Positions 7,979 to 52,542 of a DNA stretch of 64,000 bases are shown here, one piece after another; position 1 is the stretch's first letter, and every line of letters starts with the position of its first letter. The stretch comes from Acidobacteriota bacterium (GTDB taxonomy: Bacteria > Acidobacteriota > UBA890 > WLXD01). A program made the translations under genes and the position numbers. The stretch is from contig JAJCXT010000053.1 in the NCBI GenBank assembly GCA_029263295.1, forward strand, positions 3,889 to 67,888, given 5' to 3'. The notes beneath the pieces are model-generated. The model saw nothing but the letters and a program-made list of their open reading frames with translations, had not been told where the DNA came from and made no database searches.

Positions 7979-8467
7979 CTAGCCGGTACGGACGGCGAAC
8001 AGCTCTTGCCCGTATTCCACGGGCTGGCCGTTCTCCTGCAATATGGCGATAACCTCGCCATCGACATCCGCCGTGATCTCGTTCATGAGCTTCATCGCCT
8101 CGACGATGCACAACGTCTGCCCAGCGGTAACCTGGTCGCCGATTTCGACAAACGCATCGGACCCCGGTTCAGCCGCCGTGTAGAACGTGCCGACCATCGG
8201 TGAGGTGATCATGTGGGCGCCGGCGTATGCCGGCTCCGCCTCGGCCGCCACCTCTCCCACCGCCGCTGCGACGGGAACTGGTGCTCCGGCGGCCATCGGC
8301 GCCGCGACGACATGGGGCTCCGGGCGGCGGAGCCGCACAGTGACGCCATGCTGCTCGATCTCGATCTCGGCGAGGTTCTTCTCGATCGCCAGATCAGCGA
8401 GTTTCCGTATGTGGTCGATGTCCAAGCCTTCCTCCTGGCGGCTGCTGCGCTCGCCAGAGAATACCAC
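7979..8467 (-). CDS. accB: acetyl-CoA carboxylase biotin carboxyl carrier protein
   Basis: 162 aa with an Ala/Pro-rich linker and the C-terminal biotinyl domain ..CIVEAMKLMNEITADVDGEV.. (EAMKLMN biotinylation motif). Confidence 0.9.
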   Translation of the reverse strand: MVFSGERSSRQEEGLDIDHIRKLADLAIEKNLAEIEIEQHGVTVRLRRPEPHVVAAPMAAGAPVPVAAAVGEVAAEAEPAYAGAHMITSPMVGTFYTAAEPGSDAFVEIGDQVTAGQTLCIVEAMKLMNEITADVDGEVIAILQENGQPVEYGQELFAVRTG

Positions 8468-8491
8468 CGCCGCTGGGGCGCTTCAGGCCGC

Positions 8492-9562
8492 TCAGCGGGT
8501 GGGCAGAATCGCCGTATCCAGTCGGTTGAGGCGTTCGCCCCCGCTTTCGGTCACCAGGACCATGTCCTCCAGCCGAATGCCGCCTCTCCCGGGCAGATAG
8601 ACCCCCGGCTCGACGGTGACCACCATGCCAGCAGCGAGCACGTCGTCGGAGCGCGCCGACAGCCGTGGAGCCTCGTGCACTTCGAGTCCGACGCCATGTC
8701 CCAGGCTGTGGCTGAAGTGCTCCGCGAGCCCATTCTGGGTCAGCACCTCACGAGCCGCACGATCCACGTCGCTCGCCGCGGCCCCAGGTCGGATGGCCGA
8801 CACGCCCGCGACGCGCGCCGCGTCCACGGCGGCGTGAATCTCCTGCCACTCATCATCGATGGCGTCGCCAACGACAAGAGCACGGGTGATATCGCTGCAG
8901 TACCCATCCACAACACAGCCGAAGTCGACAACCATCAAGTCGCCTTGGACCAGTGCGGCACGGCCCGGTCGGGCATGCGGCAGGGCCCCGTGCGCACCGG
9001 CAGCCACGATGGTGTCGAATGCCATGGCGGTCGCGCTGCGGGTGCGGCACTCGTAGTCGAGACGGGCGGCCACCTGCAGTTCGGTCATACCCGCACAGAC
9101 CTCCGCCGCAACGTCGCACAGCACCGCCTCGGCTAGCCCCAGAGCGCGCCGAATCGCATCGACCTCCGCAGGCTCTTTGGCGCTACGAACCGCCGCAACC
9201 ACACCCTCCACGTCTACCCATTCGAGGGAGCTCTCGTGCGTCAGTTTCTGCCAAGTTGCGTGGCTGGTGCAGGTGGGATCGAAGCCGACGCGCTTGATGC
9301 CGGTGGGAACATGCGGTCGGAGCGCCGTCGACAGCGCCCCTTTGGCGACAACCGCGGTGTACTCCGGTGCCTCCAGGGCGGCCTGCTCTCTGTAGCGGGA
9401 ATCTGTCAGCAGAAGTCGCGAACCGGCGCCTACGAGGAGCCAGCCGTTACTGCCCGTGAAGCCACTGAGATAGCGGACATCGGCAGGAGCGGTAACGAGC
9501 AGGGCGTCCAGACCAAGAAGTCTGGTGCCCTGCTCGACCTTGTCCAGTCGCTGGCTGTCGAT
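8492..9562 (-). CDS. pepP: Xaa-Pro aminopeptidase / M24B family peptidase
   Basis: Track ORF 8492..9211 (GTG start) holds only the catalytic pita-bread domain (DFGCVVDGYCSDITR, HSLGHGVGLEVHE, VEPGVYLPGRGGIRLED). My translation upstream in the same frame is open to 9619. It reads ..TAIDSQRLDKVEQGTRLLGLDALLVTAPADVRYLSGFTGSNGWLLVGAGSRLLLTDSRY.., a clear creatinase/prolidase N-domain. No ATG, GTG or TTG occurs in that stretch. The start is provisionally placed at ATC 9562, with CTG 9547 or ATT 9595 as alternatives. Confidence 0.75.
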   Translation of the reverse strand: MDSQRLDKVEQGTRLLGLDALLVTAPADVRYLSGFTGSNGWLLVGAGSRLLLTDSRYREQAALEAPEYTAVVAKGALSTALRPHVPTGIKRVGFDPTCTSHATWQKLTHESSLEWVDVEGVVAAVRSAKEPAEVDAIRRALGLAEAVLCDVAAEVCAGMTELQVAARLDYECRTRSATAMAFDTIVAAGAHGALPHARPGRAALVQGDLMVVDFGCVVDGYCSDITRALVVGDAIDDEWQEIHAAVDAARVAGVSAIRPGAAASDVDRAAREVLTQNGLAEHFSHSLGHGVGLEVHEAPRLSARSDDVLAAGMVVTVEPGVYLPGRGGIRLEDMVLVTESGGERLNRLDTAILPTR

Positions 9563-9581: not shown

Positions 9582-10790
9582 CTAGATGGTCGAATAGACG
9601 ATCTGGTTGGATCGACCGATCACCTCGCCCGTGGCTGGATCCAAGGCTTCAGCCTCGATCACCACAACCGCACCCGAATCGTGGGTGATGATGGCGTTGA
9701 AGGCCAGTCCTAGGGAGTCTGTGGCGCTCGAGCTCGAATTGGCCAGCTCAGCGCGGTCGAAGAGTGACGTGTCGGTAGTGTCGCTGACGATGCGGAATCG
9801 GACAGGAACACCTACCAGGACCGCACCATTGCGTTCGCTGAACACCCTTGCGGTCATACCAGTCGGCAAATCGACCGTACCAGTGCCCGTCGTGGACCCG
9901 TCGTCCAGCGTCAAGGAAACTGACGTCTGCGCCTGGATCTCCGTGGTGATCATGGTGATCGGCCCGGACTCCGCGATCAGGTCACCGGTCAAGGGGTCGA
10001 GTAGACGGGCGCTAACCACGACCTCGCCGACTCCATTGACGAACAGAGTGTTGTAAGCCTCGCCGGACGAGTTGGTCAGCGATTTCGGCGGGGCGCCGAG
10101 GTACGCGGTTCCCTGCCCGGAGCTGGCCGTAGTATCGCGGCCGATCCTGAAACGAATCTCCATGCCGCCGATAACCGTGCCGGTGGTGTCACGCGCCGTA
10201 CCGACGATAAGCGCGTTCGTCGGTGCGGTGGTGACCACGTTGGGGAGATCCCCGCCCGCGATACGGAATGTGATGTCGACGGAGCCTTCCAAGGCAACGC
10301 GCTCGAAGTCAATCGTCACGCGGCTCGCGACGTCCGCGATCCATGCGGTGACCTCTGCTGTGCCCGCTGAACTACTGCGCACGGCAACCACGGCCACACC
10401 TTCGAAGGTGGTCACGGGCGTGCTGGCCCCGGCCGTCGTGGGGTCCGCGCCGCTGGCGCGAACACTGCCGAGGTTCGTTGCGAAGTTGACGGCAATGCCG
10501 TTGGCGATGGGATTGCCCGACGTGTCGACCGCGCTCGCTCTCACGAGAACGTCCGTTGTCCCATCCGCCGGAACGCTGCCCCCCTGGCCAGCAAGGCTGA
10601 TAACGCCACTGAATGTCCCGCTGGTGTTCGGGGTGGTGCCCGTCAGGGAATTATTGGGACCTGCCGGATCGCTGAGGCCAGAACAGCTCACGAGAACCAG
10701 CAGCAGGAAGACTACGCTCGCGGCTGCTGACCCGCGGCCGGATCGCCCAGTTAGTCGAGAAAGTGTCGATTGACGCATGGCCTTCCTCAA
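9582..10790 (-). CDS. lipoprotein with about 3 bacterial Ig-like (Big/invasin-type) repeats
   Basis: 402 aa with a signal peptide and lipobox LLVLVS-C-SG. The first module (ADGTTDVLVRASAVDTSGNPIANGIAVNFATNLG...GVAVVAVRSSSAGTAEVTAWI) looks Big_1-like. Two further modules share [IV]RFRI..DTT and VV[VI].A..LDP.TG..I. The start overlaps the stop of the upstream lipoprotein gene by 4 nt. Confidence 0.6.
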   Translation of the reverse strand: MRKAMRQSTLSRLTGRSGRGSAAASVVFLLLVLVSCSGLSDPAGPNNSLTGTTPNTSGTFSGVISLAGQGGSVPADGTTDVLVRASAVDTSGNPIANGIAVNFATNLGSVRASGADPTTAGASTPVTTFEGVAVVAVRSSSAGTAEVTAWIADVASRVTIDFERVALEGSVDITFRIAGGDLPNVVTTAPTNALIVGTARDTTGTVIGGMEIRFRIGRDTTASSGQGTAYLGAPPKSLTNSSGEAYNTLFVNGVGEVVVSARLLDPLTGDLIAESGPITMITTEIQAQTSVSLTLDDGSTTGTGTVDLPTGMTARVFSERNGAVLVGVPVRFRIVSDTTDTSLFDRAELANSSSSATDSLGLAFNAIITHDSGAVVVIEAEALDPATGEVIGRSNQIVYSTI

Positions 10791-27327: not shown

Positions 27328-28074
27328 ATGTCCACTAACCCCGACGTCGCCAACGCGATCGCGGCGGCTGGACGCGACCTGAACAGCCGCGGCCTACTCG
27401 CCTCGTACGAGGGCAACATCAGTGTCCGGCTGGACTCTGAGCGTCTGCTCACAACGCCCACCGGGGTGCATAAAGGCCGCCTCGACCCGGGCGAAATGGT
27501 AGTGGTGGATCGGCGCGGCGCGGCCATCGGTGGCGGCCAGCCCTCGTCCGAAATCAAACTGCACCTGGCCATCTACGAGGAACGCGAGGACGCGGGCGCG
27601 ATCGTCCACGCCCATCCGCCCACGGCTACCGGGTACGCCGTCGCTGGCAAGGAGCTGCCCCGCGCCGCACTCGCGGAGACCGTCGCGATGTTCGGGTGTG
27701 TGCCGGTGGCGCCCTACGGCACTCCTTCGACGGAAGCTCTCGCCGACTCGGTGCGCGAGCCGATCCGGACTTTCGACGTCGTTCTGTTGGCCAACCATGG
27801 GGCGGTTACTGTGGGCGCTGACCTGGAGCAGGCCGTCGAGCGCATGGCACAGCTCGAGCACTTCGCCCACATCGCCCTCGTTGCCCATCTACTGGGAGGC
27901 GCGCACAGCTTCAGCCCCGCCCAGGTAGACGAACTCTCGCGCCTGCGACAATCTGCCGGTGCCGGGCCCGTCCCTTCAGCCTGTTACCCTGCGGCAGACG
28001 AATCCGGCAACATTACGCTCACCCGCAAGGAACTCGTCGGTTTGATCGCCGACGCCGTACGACGCATCCGCTAG
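27328..28074 (+). CDS. class II (Zn-dependent) aldolase/adducin-family enzyme with C-terminal encapsulation-peptide-like extension
   Basis: 248 aa. The FucA/RhaD-like core has YEGNISVR, PSSEIKLH (Glu), VHAHPP (2 His) and LANHGAVTVG (His). It is followed by a Gly/Pro/Ala linker (aa 209-228) and the amphipathic helix ITLTRKELVGLIADAVRRIR (aa 229-248). It sits directly upstream of the BMC shell genes. Confidence 0.85.
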   Translation: MSTNPDVANAIAAAGRDLNSRGLLASYEGNISVRLDSERLLTTPTGVHKGRLDPGEMVVVDRRGAAIGGGQPSSEIKLHLAIYEEREDAGAIVHAHPPTATGYAVAGKELPRAALAETVAMFGCVPVAPYGTPSTEALADSVREPIRTFDVVLLANHGAVTVGADLEQAVERMAQLEHFAHIALVAHLLGGAHSFSPAQVDELSRLRQSAGAGPVPSACYPAADESGNITLTRKELVGLIADAVRRIR

Positions 28075-28122: not shown

Positions 28123-28413
28123 ATGGCAGAATACGGGGAAGCCCTCGGGCTGGTGGAAACACGTGGCTTCGTGGGGATGGTGGAGGCCTCCGACGCGATG
28201 GTGAAGGCCGCCAAGGTCACGATCATCGGTTACGAGAAGGTCGGCGGTGGCCTCGTTACAGCGATCGTTCGAGGCGATGTCGCTGCCGTGAAATCGGCGA
28301 CCGACGCTGGCGCTGCCGCGGCACGCCGCGTAGGCGAGTTGGTCTCGGTGCACGTGATCCCGCGTCCGCACGACAGTCTTGAAGAGACTCTGCCGATCGG
28401 ACAGAGCACCTAG
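28123..28413 (+). CDS. bacterial microcompartment shell protein BMC-H (PduA/EutM/CcmK fold)
   Basis: [83 protein letters not shown] is a canonical PF00936 sequence. ATG 28123 follows AGGAGG (28110-28115). The track start at TTG 28102 was rejected. Confidence 0.92.
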
Positions 28414-28431: not shown

Positions 28432-28704
28432 GTGTTCCTGGCACGCGTCGTCGGTTCTGTCGTGGCCACTCATAAGGACCCGCGGCTGGAGAGCCTGAAG
28501 CTCCTCCTGGTGGTACCGGTGACTCCTGACGGCGAAGACGAGGGCGGCTATCAGGTGGCGGTCGACACTGTGAATGCGGGGTTTCGCGAAACGGTGATCT
28601 GCGTGCGCGGATCGTCCGCGCGCATGGCGCATGGCATCGGCGATCGGCCGGTCGACACCGCCATCATCGGCATCGTCGATAGCGCCGATCTAGACGAAGC
28701 CTGA
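28432..28704 (+). CDS. BMC vertex protein BMC-P (EutN/CcmL family), paralog 1
   Basis: 90 aa. MFLARVVGSVVATHKDPRLESLKLLLV.P......GGYQVAVDTVNAG..E.V....GSSAR......PVDTAIIGIVDS. GTG start with GGAG 8 nt upstream. Confidence 0.9.
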   Translation: MFLARVVGSVVATHKDPRLESLKLLLVVPVTPDGEDEGGYQVAVDTVNAGFRETVICVRGSSARMAHGIGDRPVDTAIIGIVDSADLDEA

Positions 28705-28715
28705 GCTGACGCGCC

Positions 28716-29012
28716 GTGGACCTCGCGCGCGTCGTCGGCACCGTGGTGAGCGTGGTCAAGGACCCGCAACTTGTCGGCATCAAGCTACTGCTGATTCGTC
28801 CGGTCGACCCACAGGGCCAGTTCACGGGAAGCGCCATGATCGCGCTCGATGCGATCGGCGCGGGTCCTGGTGAGACAGTCTTCTACGTAACCGGTAAGGA
28901 AGCGTCGTTCGCGTTCCTGCCAGAGCACGTGCCGGCGGATGTTTCGGTTGTCGCGATCGTCGACCACGTGGACGAGTCCACCGACGCTCGCGGCAAGCGG
29001 AGGCAGACATGA
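28716..29012 (+). CDS. BMC vertex protein BMC-P (EutN/CcmL family), paralog 2
   Basis: 98 aa. MDLARVVGTVVSVVKDPQLVGIKLLLIRPVD...MIALDAIGAGPGETVFYVTG.E........PADVSVVAIVDHV plus the basic tail ESTDARGKRRQT. Confidence 0.9.
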   Translation: MDLARVVGTVVSVVKDPQLVGIKLLLIRPVDPQGQFTGSAMIALDAIGAGPGETVFYVTGKEASFAFLPEHVPADVSVVAIVDHVDESTDARGKRRQT

Positions 29013-29281
29013 TTCTCGGACGCGTCGTGGGAACTGTCGTCGCGTCGCAGAAACACGAGAAGTACGCCGGCAGTAAGCTCCTCCTCGTGCAGCCCGTGAA
29101 CTTGGCGGGCGACGATGATGGCGATGAGTTGATCGCTGTCGACAGCGTAGGCGCGGGGGCGGGCGAGACCGTTCTTGTCGTGCAGGAGGGCCGGTCGACC
29201 AGCATGGCCATGGGGACCGACCTGGCGCCCGCCAATGCCGCCATCGTTGGCGTCGTCGATCAGGTAGACCTGCACGACTGA
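29009..29281 (+). CDS. BMC vertex protein BMC-P (EutN/CcmL family), paralog 3
   Basis: 90 aa. MILGRVVGTVVASQKHEKYAGSKLLLVQPVN.....ELIAVDSVGAGAGETVLVVQEGRS......PANAAIVGVVDQV. ATGA overlap with paralog 2 and a GGAGG SD. Confidence 0.9.
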   Translation: MILGRVVGTVVASQKHEKYAGSKLLLVQPVNLAGDDDGDELIAVDSVGAGAGETVLVVQEGRSTSMAMGTDLAPANAAIVGVVDQVDLHD

Positions 29282-29326: not shown

Positions 29327-30256
<930 letters not shown>

Positions 30257-30262
30257 CGGCCG

Positions 30263-30907
30263 GTGGCCGCCACGACACTGCGCGTCGGACTCACCGGCAA
30301 CATCGGCGCGGGCAAGTCCACCGTGGCGGCGCTGCTGGATGGACCCGGCTTCATGATCGTGGATGCCGACCGCCTCGGCCACCTGGTCCTCGAGGATGAT
30401 GAGGCGCGCGAGCTGATCGTCGATCAACTCGGTGCGGACATCCTCGACGCCACCGGCAGAATCGACCGAACGCTTCTGGGCAAGCTCGTTTTCAGTGATT
30501 CAGGGGCTCGCGAGCGGCTCGAAGCGATCGTGCACCCGCGAATCAGGGCGACCGAGGATGAGCGCGTTGCCACGTGGGGCGTGACCCCGGGCATCGCGGT
30601 GACTGAGGCTGCCCTCCTGGTCGAGACCGGCGGCCACGAGCGCTATCACCGGCTGGTGGTGGTGAACGCACCGCGGCACACGCGGGTGGCGCGCCTGGCC
30701 GTTCGAGGTATGCGCCCGGCAGATGCTGAACGGCGCATGGCGGCCCAGATGTCCGACGCCGACAAGGCAGCTGCCGCGGACTATGTCGTAGACAACGGTG
30801 GAGATCCCGAAGACACCGCCGCACAGGTCGCGACGGTCCGTGAGCATCTCCAGGAGGACCTGCGCGCACTCTGCGCCGGGCTCAGCCTTCCACCTCGCCA
30901 ACGGTGA
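30263..30907 (+). CDS. coaE: dephospho-CoA kinase
   Basis: 214 aa. VGLTGNIGAGKSTVAALL P-loop, then ..DADRLGH.... with typical CoaE length and layout. Confidence 0.85.
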   Translation: MAATTLRVGLTGNIGAGKSTVAALLDGPGFMIVDADRLGHLVLEDDEARELIVDQLGADILDATGRIDRTLLGKLVFSDSGARERLEAIVHPRIRATEDERVATWGVTPGIAVTEAALLVETGGHERYHRLVVVNAPRHTRVARLAVRGMRPADAERRMAAQMSDADKAAAADYVVDNGGDPEDTAAQVATVREHLQEDLRALCAGLSLPPRQR

Positions 30908-40954: not shown

Positions 40955-41093
40955 TCGACCTCCACGTCAGCCGTCTGTCCGGGCCAGCCCAGCCTGCCCC
41001 ATCCTGTTAATATAGCTCGATCTGGGCGCTGCCCGCTCTGGCAATTTGCGCCGGCCTTCATCGGTCTCTTCTCGTCTTGCACCAGGCCAGCCT

Positions 41094-41813
41094 ATGTCCG
41101 CACGCACCGTTATCCTGAACACCCTCGATCCCAGCGGTCAGCAGGGTTTGGCGATCGATGTGCAGGCAGCTTTTGAGGCCGGGGCCACCGACGTTATGCC
41201 CATCGCGACCTCAACTCTGGTCGACGGCGCGATGCACGCCGTCGACGCGAAGGTACTCGCGGCGACGCTGGCCGCGGCGTTGGAACACCCTGTTGAAGCG
41301 CTGCTCGTGGGACGCCTCCCGAGTTCCAAGGTCGCTGGCGTGATCGCTGCCGCCCTGGCCCACAACCTGCCCGAGACCATGGTCTTCGCGCCGGGCGAGT
41401 TTGTCCCTTCGCGGGCGTGGTTCGCCGGCTCGGCCGAAAGGCAGCAACGAGCCCACTTTCAGACCCTCACGCGCGAGTGCACCGTGGCGGTAATGACCGC
41501 TGCACAGGTCACGGCGTGGCTGGGCAACGGCGAGCTCGGCAACGAGCAGGCGGGCGAACACCTGTGTTCAGCGGGCGCCTACGCCTCCTGGATCCGCGAC
41601 GCTACGGGTTCTGTGCGTGCACTGGACCACATCATCACCGGCGAGCACAAAGCCGTCCTCGACTATCCTGGTATCAGCGACACCGAGCCCGACAGGATTC
41701 CCGGGGCGCTCACTTCGCTGCTCGCGGGCGGACTGACGCTGGAAGAAGCCGTCGCTGGCGCGCAGCGCCACGCCGCGTGCCCGAACACCAGCGGCGCCGC
41801 GGTTTGTCGTTAG
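41094..41813 (+). CDS. ribokinase-superfamily, ThiD/PdxK-like protein with degenerate active-site motifs
   Basis: VILNTLDPSGQQGLAIDVQAAFEAGA aligns to the ThiD motif AGTDPSGGAGIQADLKTFSALGA. The C-terminal DRIPGALTSLLAGGLTLEEAVAGAQ aligns to THGTGCTLSAA..G..L.EAV..A, but the GTGC anion-hole motif is lost. The start is trimmed to ATG 41094. Confidence 0.45.
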   Translation: MSARTVILNTLDPSGQQGLAIDVQAAFEAGATDVMPIATSTLVDGAMHAVDAKVLAATLAAALEHPVEALLVGRLPSSKVAGVIAAALAHNLPETMVFAPGEFVPSRAWFAGSAERQQRAHFQTLTRECTVAVMTAAQVTAWLGNGELGNEQAGEHLCSAGAYASWIRDATGSVRALDHIITGEHKAVLDYPGISDTEPDRIPGALTSLLAGGLTLEEAVAGAQRHAACPNTSGAAVCR

Positions 41814-50920: not shown

Positions 50921-51784
50921 CTAGGCGAGTTGAGGCTCGCCGCTCCTAAGCAGGTAGTAGGTGTGACCATCGTGTCGCAGGCACTCGGCCACGTGGAACC
51001 CCGACGCGAAGGCCCGAGTGAACGCGGCGCGGGTTGCCATCCGCCATCGTCGTGCCAGATCCGGGTCCGCCGCTTTGACCGCCTGGATCTGAGAGGGAAT
51101 CTCGATGGTGAACTCGGGCGATGCGCCCACCTCGCCAACCGGCCCCGGCGGCGTCAAGTTCGCGTGGTCACCGGCGACGGCCAGCAGGCAAGGGAGCGTT
51201 GGCAACAAGGCAGGGTCGTACGACGGCCGGCCGCCGGCGGCGCGGCGCTCTACGCGAGGCGAAACGAGAGCCCACTCCGCCCGCAGTCTGTCCGTAGGAG
51301 TACCACTGTGAAGTCCGCTGCTGGTCTGCCCGTACAGGTCCTCCCAGTACGTACACGCGGTCACGCCAAGCTTGGTGAAGTTGAGATAACCGTTGAGCGA
51401 CTCCAGCGGGTCGTAGGTCCACGCCATGCTCTTGATCCCCTGCGCAAGCACGGCGTCGCGCTGAGCCCACTTCAATGCGGCGCCCAGGCCCGCGGAGCGA
51501 ACCCTGTCATCGACAGCGAGCATATGCGAGTGATGCAGCAGCTCACCGTTCGCTCGCCGTCCCAGGAAGCTGTAGCAGAAGCCCAGCATGGAATCGTCTT
51601 CCGCAAAGGCGCCGAGCATGACACCACCCACCTTGTGCGCGGACACCAGTTGGGTGAGTGGGATGATGTCGAGATCGCCGGCGAAATTCCAGACGTGACG
51701 CTGTAGGTCTTCGCAGGCGTGGTACTCGGAGATCCGCTCGAGCGGCCGGATGGTCCATGCGGGGCGCGATGCCTGCGACTCCAT
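50921..51784 (-). CDS. GNAT-superfamily acyltransferase (COG3375-like)
   Basis: 287 aa from ATG 51784 (TGATG overlap with the nif3 stop). GNAT motif A, VRSAGLGAALKWAQR. The track ORF 50921..52336 is an over-extension across nif3. Confidence 0.6.
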   Translation of the reverse strand: MESQASRPAWTIRPLERISEYHACEDLQRHVWNFAGDLDIIPLTQLVSAHKVGGVMLGAFAEDDSMLGFCYSFLGRRANGELLHHSHMLAVDDRVRSAGLGAALKWAQRDAVLAQGIKSMAWTYDPLESLNGYLNFTKLGVTACTYWEDLYGQTSSGLHSGTPTDRLRAEWALVSPRVERRAAGGRPSYDPALLPTLPCLLAVAGDHANLTPPGPVGEVGASPEFTIEIPSQIQAVKAADPDLARRWRMATRAAFTRAFASGFHVAECLRHDGHTYYLLRSGEPQLA

Positions 51785-52542
51785 CAGATGCCTGTTGGCA
51801 AGTGAATCCACTCCGTTGCCACACCGAACGTCTCCGCAAGTCGTTCCCCCACTGCTCGCACGCCAAAGGTCTCTGTCGCGTAGTGACCAGCAAAGATGCA
51901 GTTGATCCCCGCCTCGCGCGCCAGGTGATACGCGGAGTGTCTGCTCTCGCCGGTGATGAAGCAGTCGGCGCCGGCCTCGATCGCCTCCTCCAGGAAGCTG
52001 CAGCCGCTGCCGGTCAACACCGCGAGCCTCTGGACCGGGTCGGGGCCAAACGCCCACATGGTCTGATCGTCGCACCCGGCCACAGCCAGCCGACCTGCGA
52101 GTTCGGCCAGCGGCATCGCGTCCGGCAAGGCCGCCAGAGTGCCCAAGCGCACGCCGCCGTACTCCCCAAAACCTGACTCCGGCTGCGCCCCCAGCGCCCT
52201 GGCCAGCAGGGCGTTGTTGCCCAGCTCCGCGTGCACATCCAGCGGCAGATGAGACGCGTAAACCGACAGTCCGCCGCGGAAACACGCGCCGATACGGGCG
52301 CCCGGGCCGCCTCGCAGCGGCTGCTGCTCGCCCCACAAAAGCCCGTGGTGAACCAGCAACATCTGGCAGTCGCTCTCCACGGCCATCTCGATCGTCGCCA
52401 GCGCGGCGTCGACAGCGATCCCCACCTTGGCGACGCCCTCACTCGCCTCGACCTGGAGACCGTTCAGCGAAGCGTCCTGCACGCGCTCGGCATCCAGCAG
52501 CTGGTCCAGATAGTCGACGATCTCATTTAGCGGCGCGCTCAA
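51784..52542 (-). CDS. Nif3-like dinuclear metal center protein (YbgI/GTP cyclohydrolase 1 type 2 family)
   Basis: 252 aa. ..DASLNGLQVE.....V.KVGIAVDA........A.....MLLVHHGL.W.., C-terminal ..IFAGHYATE.. Confidence 0.85.
   Translation of the reverse strand: MSAPLNEIVDYLDQLLDAERVQDASLNGLQVEASEGVAKVGIAVDAALATIEMAVESDCQMLLVHHGLLWGEQQPLRGGPGARIGACFRGGLSVYASHLPLDVHAELGNNALLARALGAQPESGFGEYGGVRLGTLAALPDAMPLAELAGRLAVAGCDDQTMWAFGPDPVQRLAVLTGSGCSFLEEAIEAGADCFITGESRHSAYHLAREAGINCIFAGHYATETFGVRAVGERLAETFGVATEWIHLPTGI

Follow-up and report, generated by a model that had tools for sequence, protein, structure and literature searches.

A candidate C-terminal encapsulation peptide on the aldolase of a reduced ACI-type microcompartment locus in an uncultured Acidobacteriota bacterium

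Encapsulation peptides (EPs) of bacterial microcompartments (BMCs) have been defined as short, amphipathic, terminal predicted helices, attached through a flexible and variable linker, that occur on BMC-linked proteins only (Kinney, 2012; Aussignargues et al., 2015). Aussignargues et al. identified a C-terminal EP of ∼17 residues on 21 of 23 BMC-associated class II aldolases, behind linkers of 23–81 residues without sequence conservation, and found it to be absent from non-BMC controls (PMC4594438). More recently, Sutter et al. (2021; Nat Commun 12:3809, PMC8217296, Supplementary Data 2) catalogued the ACI type of locus, which comprises 125 loci, all in Acidobacteria, and whose definition includes "a pfam00596 aldolase with a C-terminal EP". 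Here a stretch of 64,000 nucleotides from an uncultured Acidobacteriota bacterium (contig JAJCXT010000053.1), called the window, was analysed. It contains a class II aldolase/adducin-family gene for a putative cargo enzyme of 248 residues (27328..28074, + strand; open reading frame (ORF) list and Pfam PF00596), which carries a C-terminal tail and lies directly upstream of four shell genes. By analogy with the described peptides, residues 229–248 of this aldolase are proposed to be a C-terminal EP that recruits the enzyme into the microcompartment lumen, with a probability of roughly 0.8.

An earlier reading of the window, made from the sequence only, had proposed such a peptide and had cited the C-terminal EP of a BMC aldolase as precedent. 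Both points are supported, the precedent by the survey of Aussignargues et al. and, for the ACI type, by the catalogue of Sutter et al.; the tag is therefore a rediscovery and not a new feature, having been catalogued in 2021 for the same type of Acidobacteria gene cluster, and little is added to it here as a discovery. The new points are modest, namely a reduced variant of the locus and an invariant cysteine that is linked to the shell genes. The analysis is of interest in that a part of an uncultured Acidobacteriota genome which otherwise looks like housekeeping DNA appears to encode a microcompartment together with a targeted aldolase as cargo. The uncharacterised ACI compartments occur in abundant soil bacteria, and the compact set of four shell genes with a tag of 33 residues would be convenient for testing ACI function or for engineering.

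Architecture and conservation of the aldolase tail

Pfam Aldolase_II (PF00596) covers residues 10–184 of the protein (E = 6e-50), and all NCBIfam class II aldolase profiles stop by residue ∼204. Escherichia coli FucA (sequence from NC_000913.3) has 215 residues, as the sequence-only reading had stated approximately, and its C-terminus, ..KTYGLRIEE, aligns opposite residues 205–215 of the window aldolase; residues 1–215 (27328..27972, + strand) are the equivalent of full-length FucA in this alignment. In the AlphaFold2 model, which was run on a 74-sequence alignment (mean predicted local distance difference test (pLDDT) 86.8; predicted template modelling score 0.79), the last core helix spans residues 197–209. 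The core had earlier been taken to end near residue 205. This agrees with the NCBIfam profiles, but FucA aligns to ∼215, so that tail starts at 205 or 209 are slightly early and ∼7 residues of the previously described linker correspond to the mobile C-terminal tail of FucA. Because the FucA end aligns opposite residue ∼215, the segment that is extra relative to the E. coli enzyme is residues 216–248, a linker of 13 residues followed by a conserved block of 20.

Bases 27952–28074 translate to SAGAGPVPSACYPAADESGNITLTRKELVGLIADAVRRIR and a stop codon, which are aldolase residues 209–248. The linker, residues 216–228 (27973..28011, + strand), reads SACYPAADESGN with its boundary at I229, as delimited by pLDDT and the lengths in homologues, and is the shortest of the family. 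The putative EP block, residues 229–248 (28012..28071, + strand), reads ITLTRKELVGLIADAVRRIR and was delimited by the AlphaFold2 model, the hydrophobic moment and a motif hidden Markov model (HMM). Residues 222–229 have pLDDT <50 and are predicted to be disordered, and residues 233–247 (28024–28068, + strand) are predicted to form a helix at the extreme C-terminus with a pLDDT of ∼86. Within this helix the 14-mer KELVGLIADAVRRI (residues 234–247) has the top 14-residue hydrophobic moment of the whole aldolase, 0.70, on two hydrophobicity scales, and this moment was equalled by 1.9% of 20,000 shuffles (P = 0.019). On a 100-degree wheel, L236, V237, L239, I240, A243, V244 and I247 fall within one 160-degree arc, with K234, E235, G238, A241, D242, R245, R246 and R248 on the opposite side. 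The model and the wheel thus bear out the expectation of a helical, amphipathic segment behind a disordered linker; the earlier estimate of ∼18 residues was right as to amphipathicity but too long, the helix having only ∼14–15 residues.

The block follows the pattern [IVF]x[LV][TS]xxELxxL[IV][AE][DE]A[VIL][RK]xx[RK], which is kept down to ∼42% core identity. It is conserved in 54 distinct sequences, in which A15 never varies and E7, L8 and L11 hardly do, and its mean pairwise identity over 20 residues is 60%, compared with 53% for the enzyme core. The linkers of 60 homologues vary from 13 to 82 residues in length, with a median of 45, and are rich in A, P, G, D, E and S. A conserved block behind a variable linker is the architecture of an EP, in which the helix is constrained and the tether is not.

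The motif was also searched for outside the aldolase. When the C-terminus HMM built from homologues was run on all six frames of the window, the sole match was at the tail (E = 9.6e-9), the next having E = 0.45, and neither the window nor the 80 related loci gave a second carrier with the motif HMM. A phmmer search with residues 209–248 against 1.84 billion representatives, a weak test with a query of only 40 residues, returned one aldolase, three short fragments of aldolase C-termini and two giant repeat proteins (P0121 and P0123), six hits in all. The two repeat proteins were judged spurious as sharers of the tag, since they match residues 9–30 of the query only, through repeated Cys/Asp/Gly-rich modules.

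Linkage of the tail to shell genes in related loci

Relatives were collected in a one-genome-per-species scan, which gave 79 loci with flanks of up to 10 kb and 80 distinct aldolases for comparison (identifiers beginning with L denote loci). Shell genes were called by phmmer in each locus, and aldolase C-termini were scored with the block HMM, with E<1e-3 taken as a match. It was found that 66 of the 80 aldolases are shell-linked, with BMC-H and/or BMC-P in the locus, and that all 66 carry the C-terminal amphipathic helix or encode it out of frame. The HMM matches 61 of these, in the common form [IVF]x[LV]TxxELxxL[IV][AE][DE]A[VIL][RK]; four (L032, L071, L074 and L079) have a divergent terminal amphipathic helix; and in L076 the aldolase (10001–10672) is frameshifted, with the EP block EIRLTYRELSALIEDAIRSLR in another frame (ORF offset 10484). 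Thirteen of the 14 shell-less relatives, at 41–50% identity, have short tails and no helix: eleven Clostridia, whose tails end in ..GKHPGYKHYNK, the Acidobacteriota locus L064 and the Edwardsbacteria locus L081. The association of helix and shell has a Fisher P of 8e-12, which is uncorrected for phylogeny and derives from sequences that are not independent. The sequence-only reading had predicted that the extension would be specific to BMC aldolases, and the comparison agrees, with the helix in 66/66 shell-linked aldolases (one out of frame) against 1/14 shell-less ones (L070).

The cleanest contrast is provided by L064, which has no shell gene, no helix and no linker cysteine, and its relative L026, which has all three, the two cores being similar. 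L064 is regarded as a natural loss contrast inside Acidobacteria. The targeting reading is further supported by gene order, since close and distant homologues alike lie directly upstream of BMC-H and three BMC-P genes.

Judged by the definition of an EP, the tail has the short, amphipathic, terminal predicted helix and a flexible, variable linker, with the invariant cysteine as a caveat, and it is found on BMC-linked aldolases only, L070 excepted. Several observations weigh against reading it as an EP. The shell-less set comes mostly from one Clostridia clade and offers few independent contrasts. L070 (Candidatus Acidiferrales) keeps an EP-like helix, IPLTRRELESLVEEAIRNDRLRH (E = 0.0018), together with the cysteine, but the 10 kb upstream and the 3 kb downstream of its aldolase contain no shell gene. 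The window linker of 13 residues falls below the 23–81 range of other BMC aldolases, and the invariant cysteine means that the linker is not simply poorly conserved. Windows of 18–20 residues in the tail are not significantly amphipathic (P 0.05–0.33), so the functional helix would have about four turns, with 14–15 residues that are clearly amphipathic. Literature searches found no experimental work on any ACI protein or compartment.

Two other explanations of the helix bear on these points. The helix could be an intrinsic element of the aldolase, such as an active-site lid or an oligomerisation or regulatory helix, that is independent of any microcompartment. The C-terminal tail of FucA does take part in catalysis, as seen in Tyr209 mutant structures, and the helix is unusually conserved for an EP (60% pairwise identity) and well predicted (pLDDT ∼86); its retention in L070 fits as well. 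However, an intrinsic element would hardly be missing from 13 of 14 shell-less relatives at 41–50% identity, one of them an Acidobacteriota, and a tether of 13–82 residues that is predicted to be disordered speaks against docking within the molecule in one fixed geometry. Moreover, no NCBIfam or Pfam aldolase model and no solved structure reaches into the helix, and this explanation is considered improbable. The tail could also be vestigial and currently functionless, or its amphipathic stretch could be due to chance. This would agree with the 18–20-residue moment, which is no better than that of shuffles, and with the decay seen at related loci through the fusion and deletion in L083 and the frameshift in L076. 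Such an explanation is disfavoured and very improbable, because the motif is kept in 54 distinct sequences to ∼42% core identity and gives a unique hit in the window, and because neither the aldolase nor any of the four shell genes is disrupted and their codon bias is normal (GC content at third codon positions 0.77–0.81). The preferred reading remains that of an EP.

Some of the related loci have further peculiarities. The frameshift of L076 may reflect a sequencing error or may mark a pseudogene. In L083 (6001–6954; P0035, 317 residues) the aldolase is fused in frame to BMC-P exactly at the expected start of the EP helix (..STDESGT|MIVGRVV..); the housekeeping synteny is the same, but there is no helix, no BMC-H gene and only one of the three BMC-P genes, and an ORF of 54 residues is all that is left of the LPG synthase gene, so that the locus is either decayed or an assembly collapse. 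L047, from a Terriglobia metagenome-assembled genome, has two aldolase ORFs of equal length and score (offsets 9967 and 14847, 4.9 kb apart); their C-terminal tails are the same, and each ORF precedes a set of BMC-H and three BMC-P genes, which is either a tandem duplication or an assembly artefact. The aldolases of L070 (10001–10732) and L064 (9941–10663) both have a glutamate dehydrogenase gene on one side and DNA-repair genes on the other. L071 (uncultured bacterium) and L074 (Candidatus Latescibacteria) have a single adjoining BMC-P gene and different helices, ..EELIEEITRKVLSGL.. and ..EQLVKSITERVMATL.., and probably belong to another microcompartment type.

Linker cysteine, enzyme identity and proposed role of the tail

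The linker contains an invariant cysteine, C219, in the motif P-x-C-[PYAT] (codon 27982..27984, + strand; alignments). An equivalent residue is present in 65 of 65 shell-linked aldolases and absent from 13 of the 14 shell-less ones, L070 being the sole shell-less carrier; the shell-less L064 has Ser in its place. The description of the linker as poorly conserved, given in the sequence-only reading, is thus accurate for its length (13–82 residues) and its disorder but not for this position. Two published observations touch on it. In the table of Aussignargues et al., Cys makes up 5.5% of aldolase linkers, in agreement with the conserved cysteine found here, and their text does not mention cysteine (PMC4594438); the ACI catalogue entry suspects a metal binding role in this locus type (Sutter et al., 2021, PMC8217296). 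C219 may be a microcompartment-specific functional residue, in which case the linker would not be a passive tether. A redox- or metal-dependent switch on a mobile tail is one example, which could couple aldolase activity or release to the lumen environment; such a role is put forward tentatively and is on balance doubtful.

Cysteines also occur elsewhere in the linkers of relatives. Vicinamibacterales linkers (L006–L063) are long and have a second conserved cysteine in the element D/xCQV[VL][EQ]AP[ST]xP..RLV, which is absent from the window protein; given this second conserved element, part of what is called linker in that group is under constraint. L071 and L074, which stand outside the main ACI group, have a CxxCx3-4C cluster at the position of the linker cysteine.

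The identity of the enzyme itself can be narrowed. The AlphaFold2 model superposes on E. coli FucA structures with a target-normalised TM-score of 0.88, and H94, H96, H157 (zinc ligands) and E75, which correspond to the FucA zinc ligands His92/94/155 and catalytic Glu73, are invariant in 74 homologues. In the alignment with E. coli FucA the aldehyde-pocket residue Tyr113 of FucA is opposite L115 and Tyr209 is opposite A210, so neither tyrosine is conserved. None of the NCBIfam equivalog cut-offs is reached by the window aldolase: TIGR01086 (fucA) gives 90 bits against a cut-off of 400, and the best family, OtnC (3-oxo-tetronate-4-phosphate decarboxylase), gives 133 bits against 250. Because both tyrosines are replaced and the equivalog scores are below cut-off, the label FucA-type is valid at the superfamily level only, and the substrate, judging from these residues and scores, is probably not L-fuculose-1-phosphate. 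The "YG" of the FucA tail is retained in more distant ACI homologues. A database search with the aldolase returned >100 close homologues, nearly all of 247–249 residues, and the named ones come from Acidobacteria.

In the proposed mechanism, the four-turn amphipathic helix of the 229–248 block, on its short flexible tether, would act as a tag that recruits the aldolase to the lumen of a shell made of the products of the BMC-H gene and the three BMC-P genes that directly follow. The hydrophobic face of the helix (L236, V237, L239, I240, A243, V244 and I247) would dock on the lumen-facing layer of BMC-H hexamers. Alternatively or additionally, the helix may bundle with other cargo EPs and nucleate a core before the shell closes. 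The anatomy of helix and tether, its conservation and its association with shell genes are observed; the docking or bundling step, and with it the binding partner and the targeting itself, is drawn by analogy with the PduP, PduD and CcmN peptides. FucA-type aldolases are C4 tetramers, so each enzyme particle would present four helices, which would favour multivalent binding and avidity. In what we take to be the PduP sequence register, the window residues E-L-x-x-L-I-x-x-A-V match L6, L9, I10, I13, L14 and E7 of PduP. These PduP residues were reported to be important for encapsulation (PMC4594438).

A different weighting of these two steps has to be considered, in which the helix mainly drives self-association of the cargo into a pro-metabolosome through EP–EP bundling and another protein recruits the shell. 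This is compatible with the EP reading. Such a second role for EPs was proposed by Aussignargues et al. (2015), and EP-bearing enzymes aggregate when expressed alone (PMC4594438); four helices per tetramer, as deduced from the C4 symmetry of FucA, would also favour networking. However, the motif occurs on no other protein in the window or the 80 loci, which gives no sign of heterotypic bundling between identical EPs, and the aldolase is the only cargo beside the shell genes of the reduced locus, which requires that something on the aldolase contacts the shell. Self-association as the main role is possible, if somewhat unlikely, and recruitment of the aldolase into the lumen by its tail, through docking, bundling or both, is preferred.

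The reduced ACI locus and its relation to described systems

The shell genes begin 48 nt past the aldolase stop with a gene for a BMC-H hexamer shell protein of 96 residues, the likely docking partner (28123..28413, + strand; Pfam PF00936, E = 2e-29), which scores 141.9 bits with the NCBIfam EutM model, over the cut-off of 133, and has AGGAGG 7 nt 5' of its ATG. No terminator-like site was found on the + strand between the aldolase and the shell genes. A triplet of BMC-P (EutN/CcmL) pentamer shell protein genes follows on the same strand, at 28432..28704 (Pfam PF03319, E = 1e-28), 28716..29012 (E = 8e-26) and 29009..29281 (E = 3e-26), the start of the third overlapping the stop of the second. 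The sequence-only reading had placed shell genes immediately downstream of the aldolase, and BMC-H (28123–28413) and the three EutN/CcmL genes (28432–29281) are indeed there.

The triplet is directly followed by FolD (29327–30256) and then CoaE (30263–30907), both assigned by Pfam. FolD was considered as a cargo candidate and rejected, as it has ordinary termini, no extension and no hit with the EP HMM; it is probably just a neighbour of the shell genes. Upstream of the aldolase, on the other strand, are the genes for NrdR and LPG_synthase_TM, the latter being the divergent immediate neighbour. The rest of the 64-kb window is housekeeping in character (ProRS, EPSP synthase, pilus secretin, RelA, SecDF, TGT, KdsA/C/D, CTP synthase, MetRS and others). 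Three ORFs have no Pfam match at E<=1e-5, at 50921–52336 (−, 471 residues), 8213–9136 (+, 307 residues) and 41046–41813 (+, 255 residues); the latter two have gene-like codon bias.

The assignment to the ACI type agrees with the phylogenetic distribution, since the nearest genome loci (57–82% identity) are all Acidobacteriota and the named database hits are Acidobacteria. The arrangement of the window recurs around a 57%-identical homologue on a 5.87-Mb chromosome: NrdR and LPG synthase on one side, then the aldolase, BMC-H, three BMC-P, FolD and CoaE. In a 47%-identical Vicinamibacterales homologue, a canonical ACI locus, the order is a YHS-like protein of 88 residues, the aldolase, BMC-H, three BMC-P and a 2-hydroxyacid dehydrogenase. 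ACI loci as described by Sutter et al. have in the main locus, besides this dehydrogenase, a small Cys-rich protein with an N-terminal EP and further proteins of unknown function, and on a satellite locus an aldehyde dehydrogenase that bears an EP. No hydroxyacid dehydrogenase (pfam00389/02826) was found in the 64-kb window by Pfam scans or by phmmer with the L002 enzyme, no small Cys-rich protein of ∼80 residues was found there by phmmer with the L002 YHS-like protein of 88 residues, and no aldehyde dehydrogenase (PF00171) is among the window ORFs scanned. The dehydrogenase follows the BMC-P triplet in 34 related loci and is absent from 25 that have enough downstream sequence, and is for this reason treated as a common and not a universal ACI component. 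FolD follows the triplet in four locus identifiers (L001 and L005, which are on the same contig, L003 and L067) and in the window; in 21 loci neither gene follows it. The window locus is thus a reduced ACI variant, in which FolD takes the usual place of the hydroxyacid dehydrogenase. In L001, FolD and the last BMC-P gene share 4 nt, at the start of the one and the stop of the other.

Among described systems, the N-terminal EPs of PduP and PduD (Pdu) and of EutC (Eut) and the C-terminal EP of CcmN (beta-carboxysome) resemble the window tail in being short amphipathic helices on a flexible tether. They differ from it in lying at the opposite terminus, CcmN excepted, in their unrelated cargo and in having no detectable sequence homology with it. 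For these peptides the sufficiency for targeting has been demonstrated experimentally, whereas the ACI tail is known from sequence and model; likewise, the shell partners PduA/J/K and CcmK2 are established or proposed for the Pdu and CcmN type, and none is known for ACI.

The BMC aldolases surveyed by Aussignargues et al. are closer (PMC4594438). They differ in belonging to another BMC type, probably with another substrate, and the window linker has 13 residues with an invariant cysteine. They are alike in the core, in a linker rich in small and polar residues, and in a terminal amphipathic helix of ∼12–17 residues that is confined to BMC-associated orthologues.

The canonical ACI locus (Sutter et al., 2021) is the closest of all by gene content and order. 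The window differs from it in having neither the hydroxyacid dehydrogenase nor the small Cys-rich YHS-like protein and in having FolD and CoaE after the triplet, and within the ACI family its linker of 13 residues is the shortest, against a median of 45. The pfam00596 aldolase, the Acidobacteriota homologues and the order of aldolase, BMC-H and BMC-P triplet are the same, and the helix motif is common to the L002-type loci and the window.

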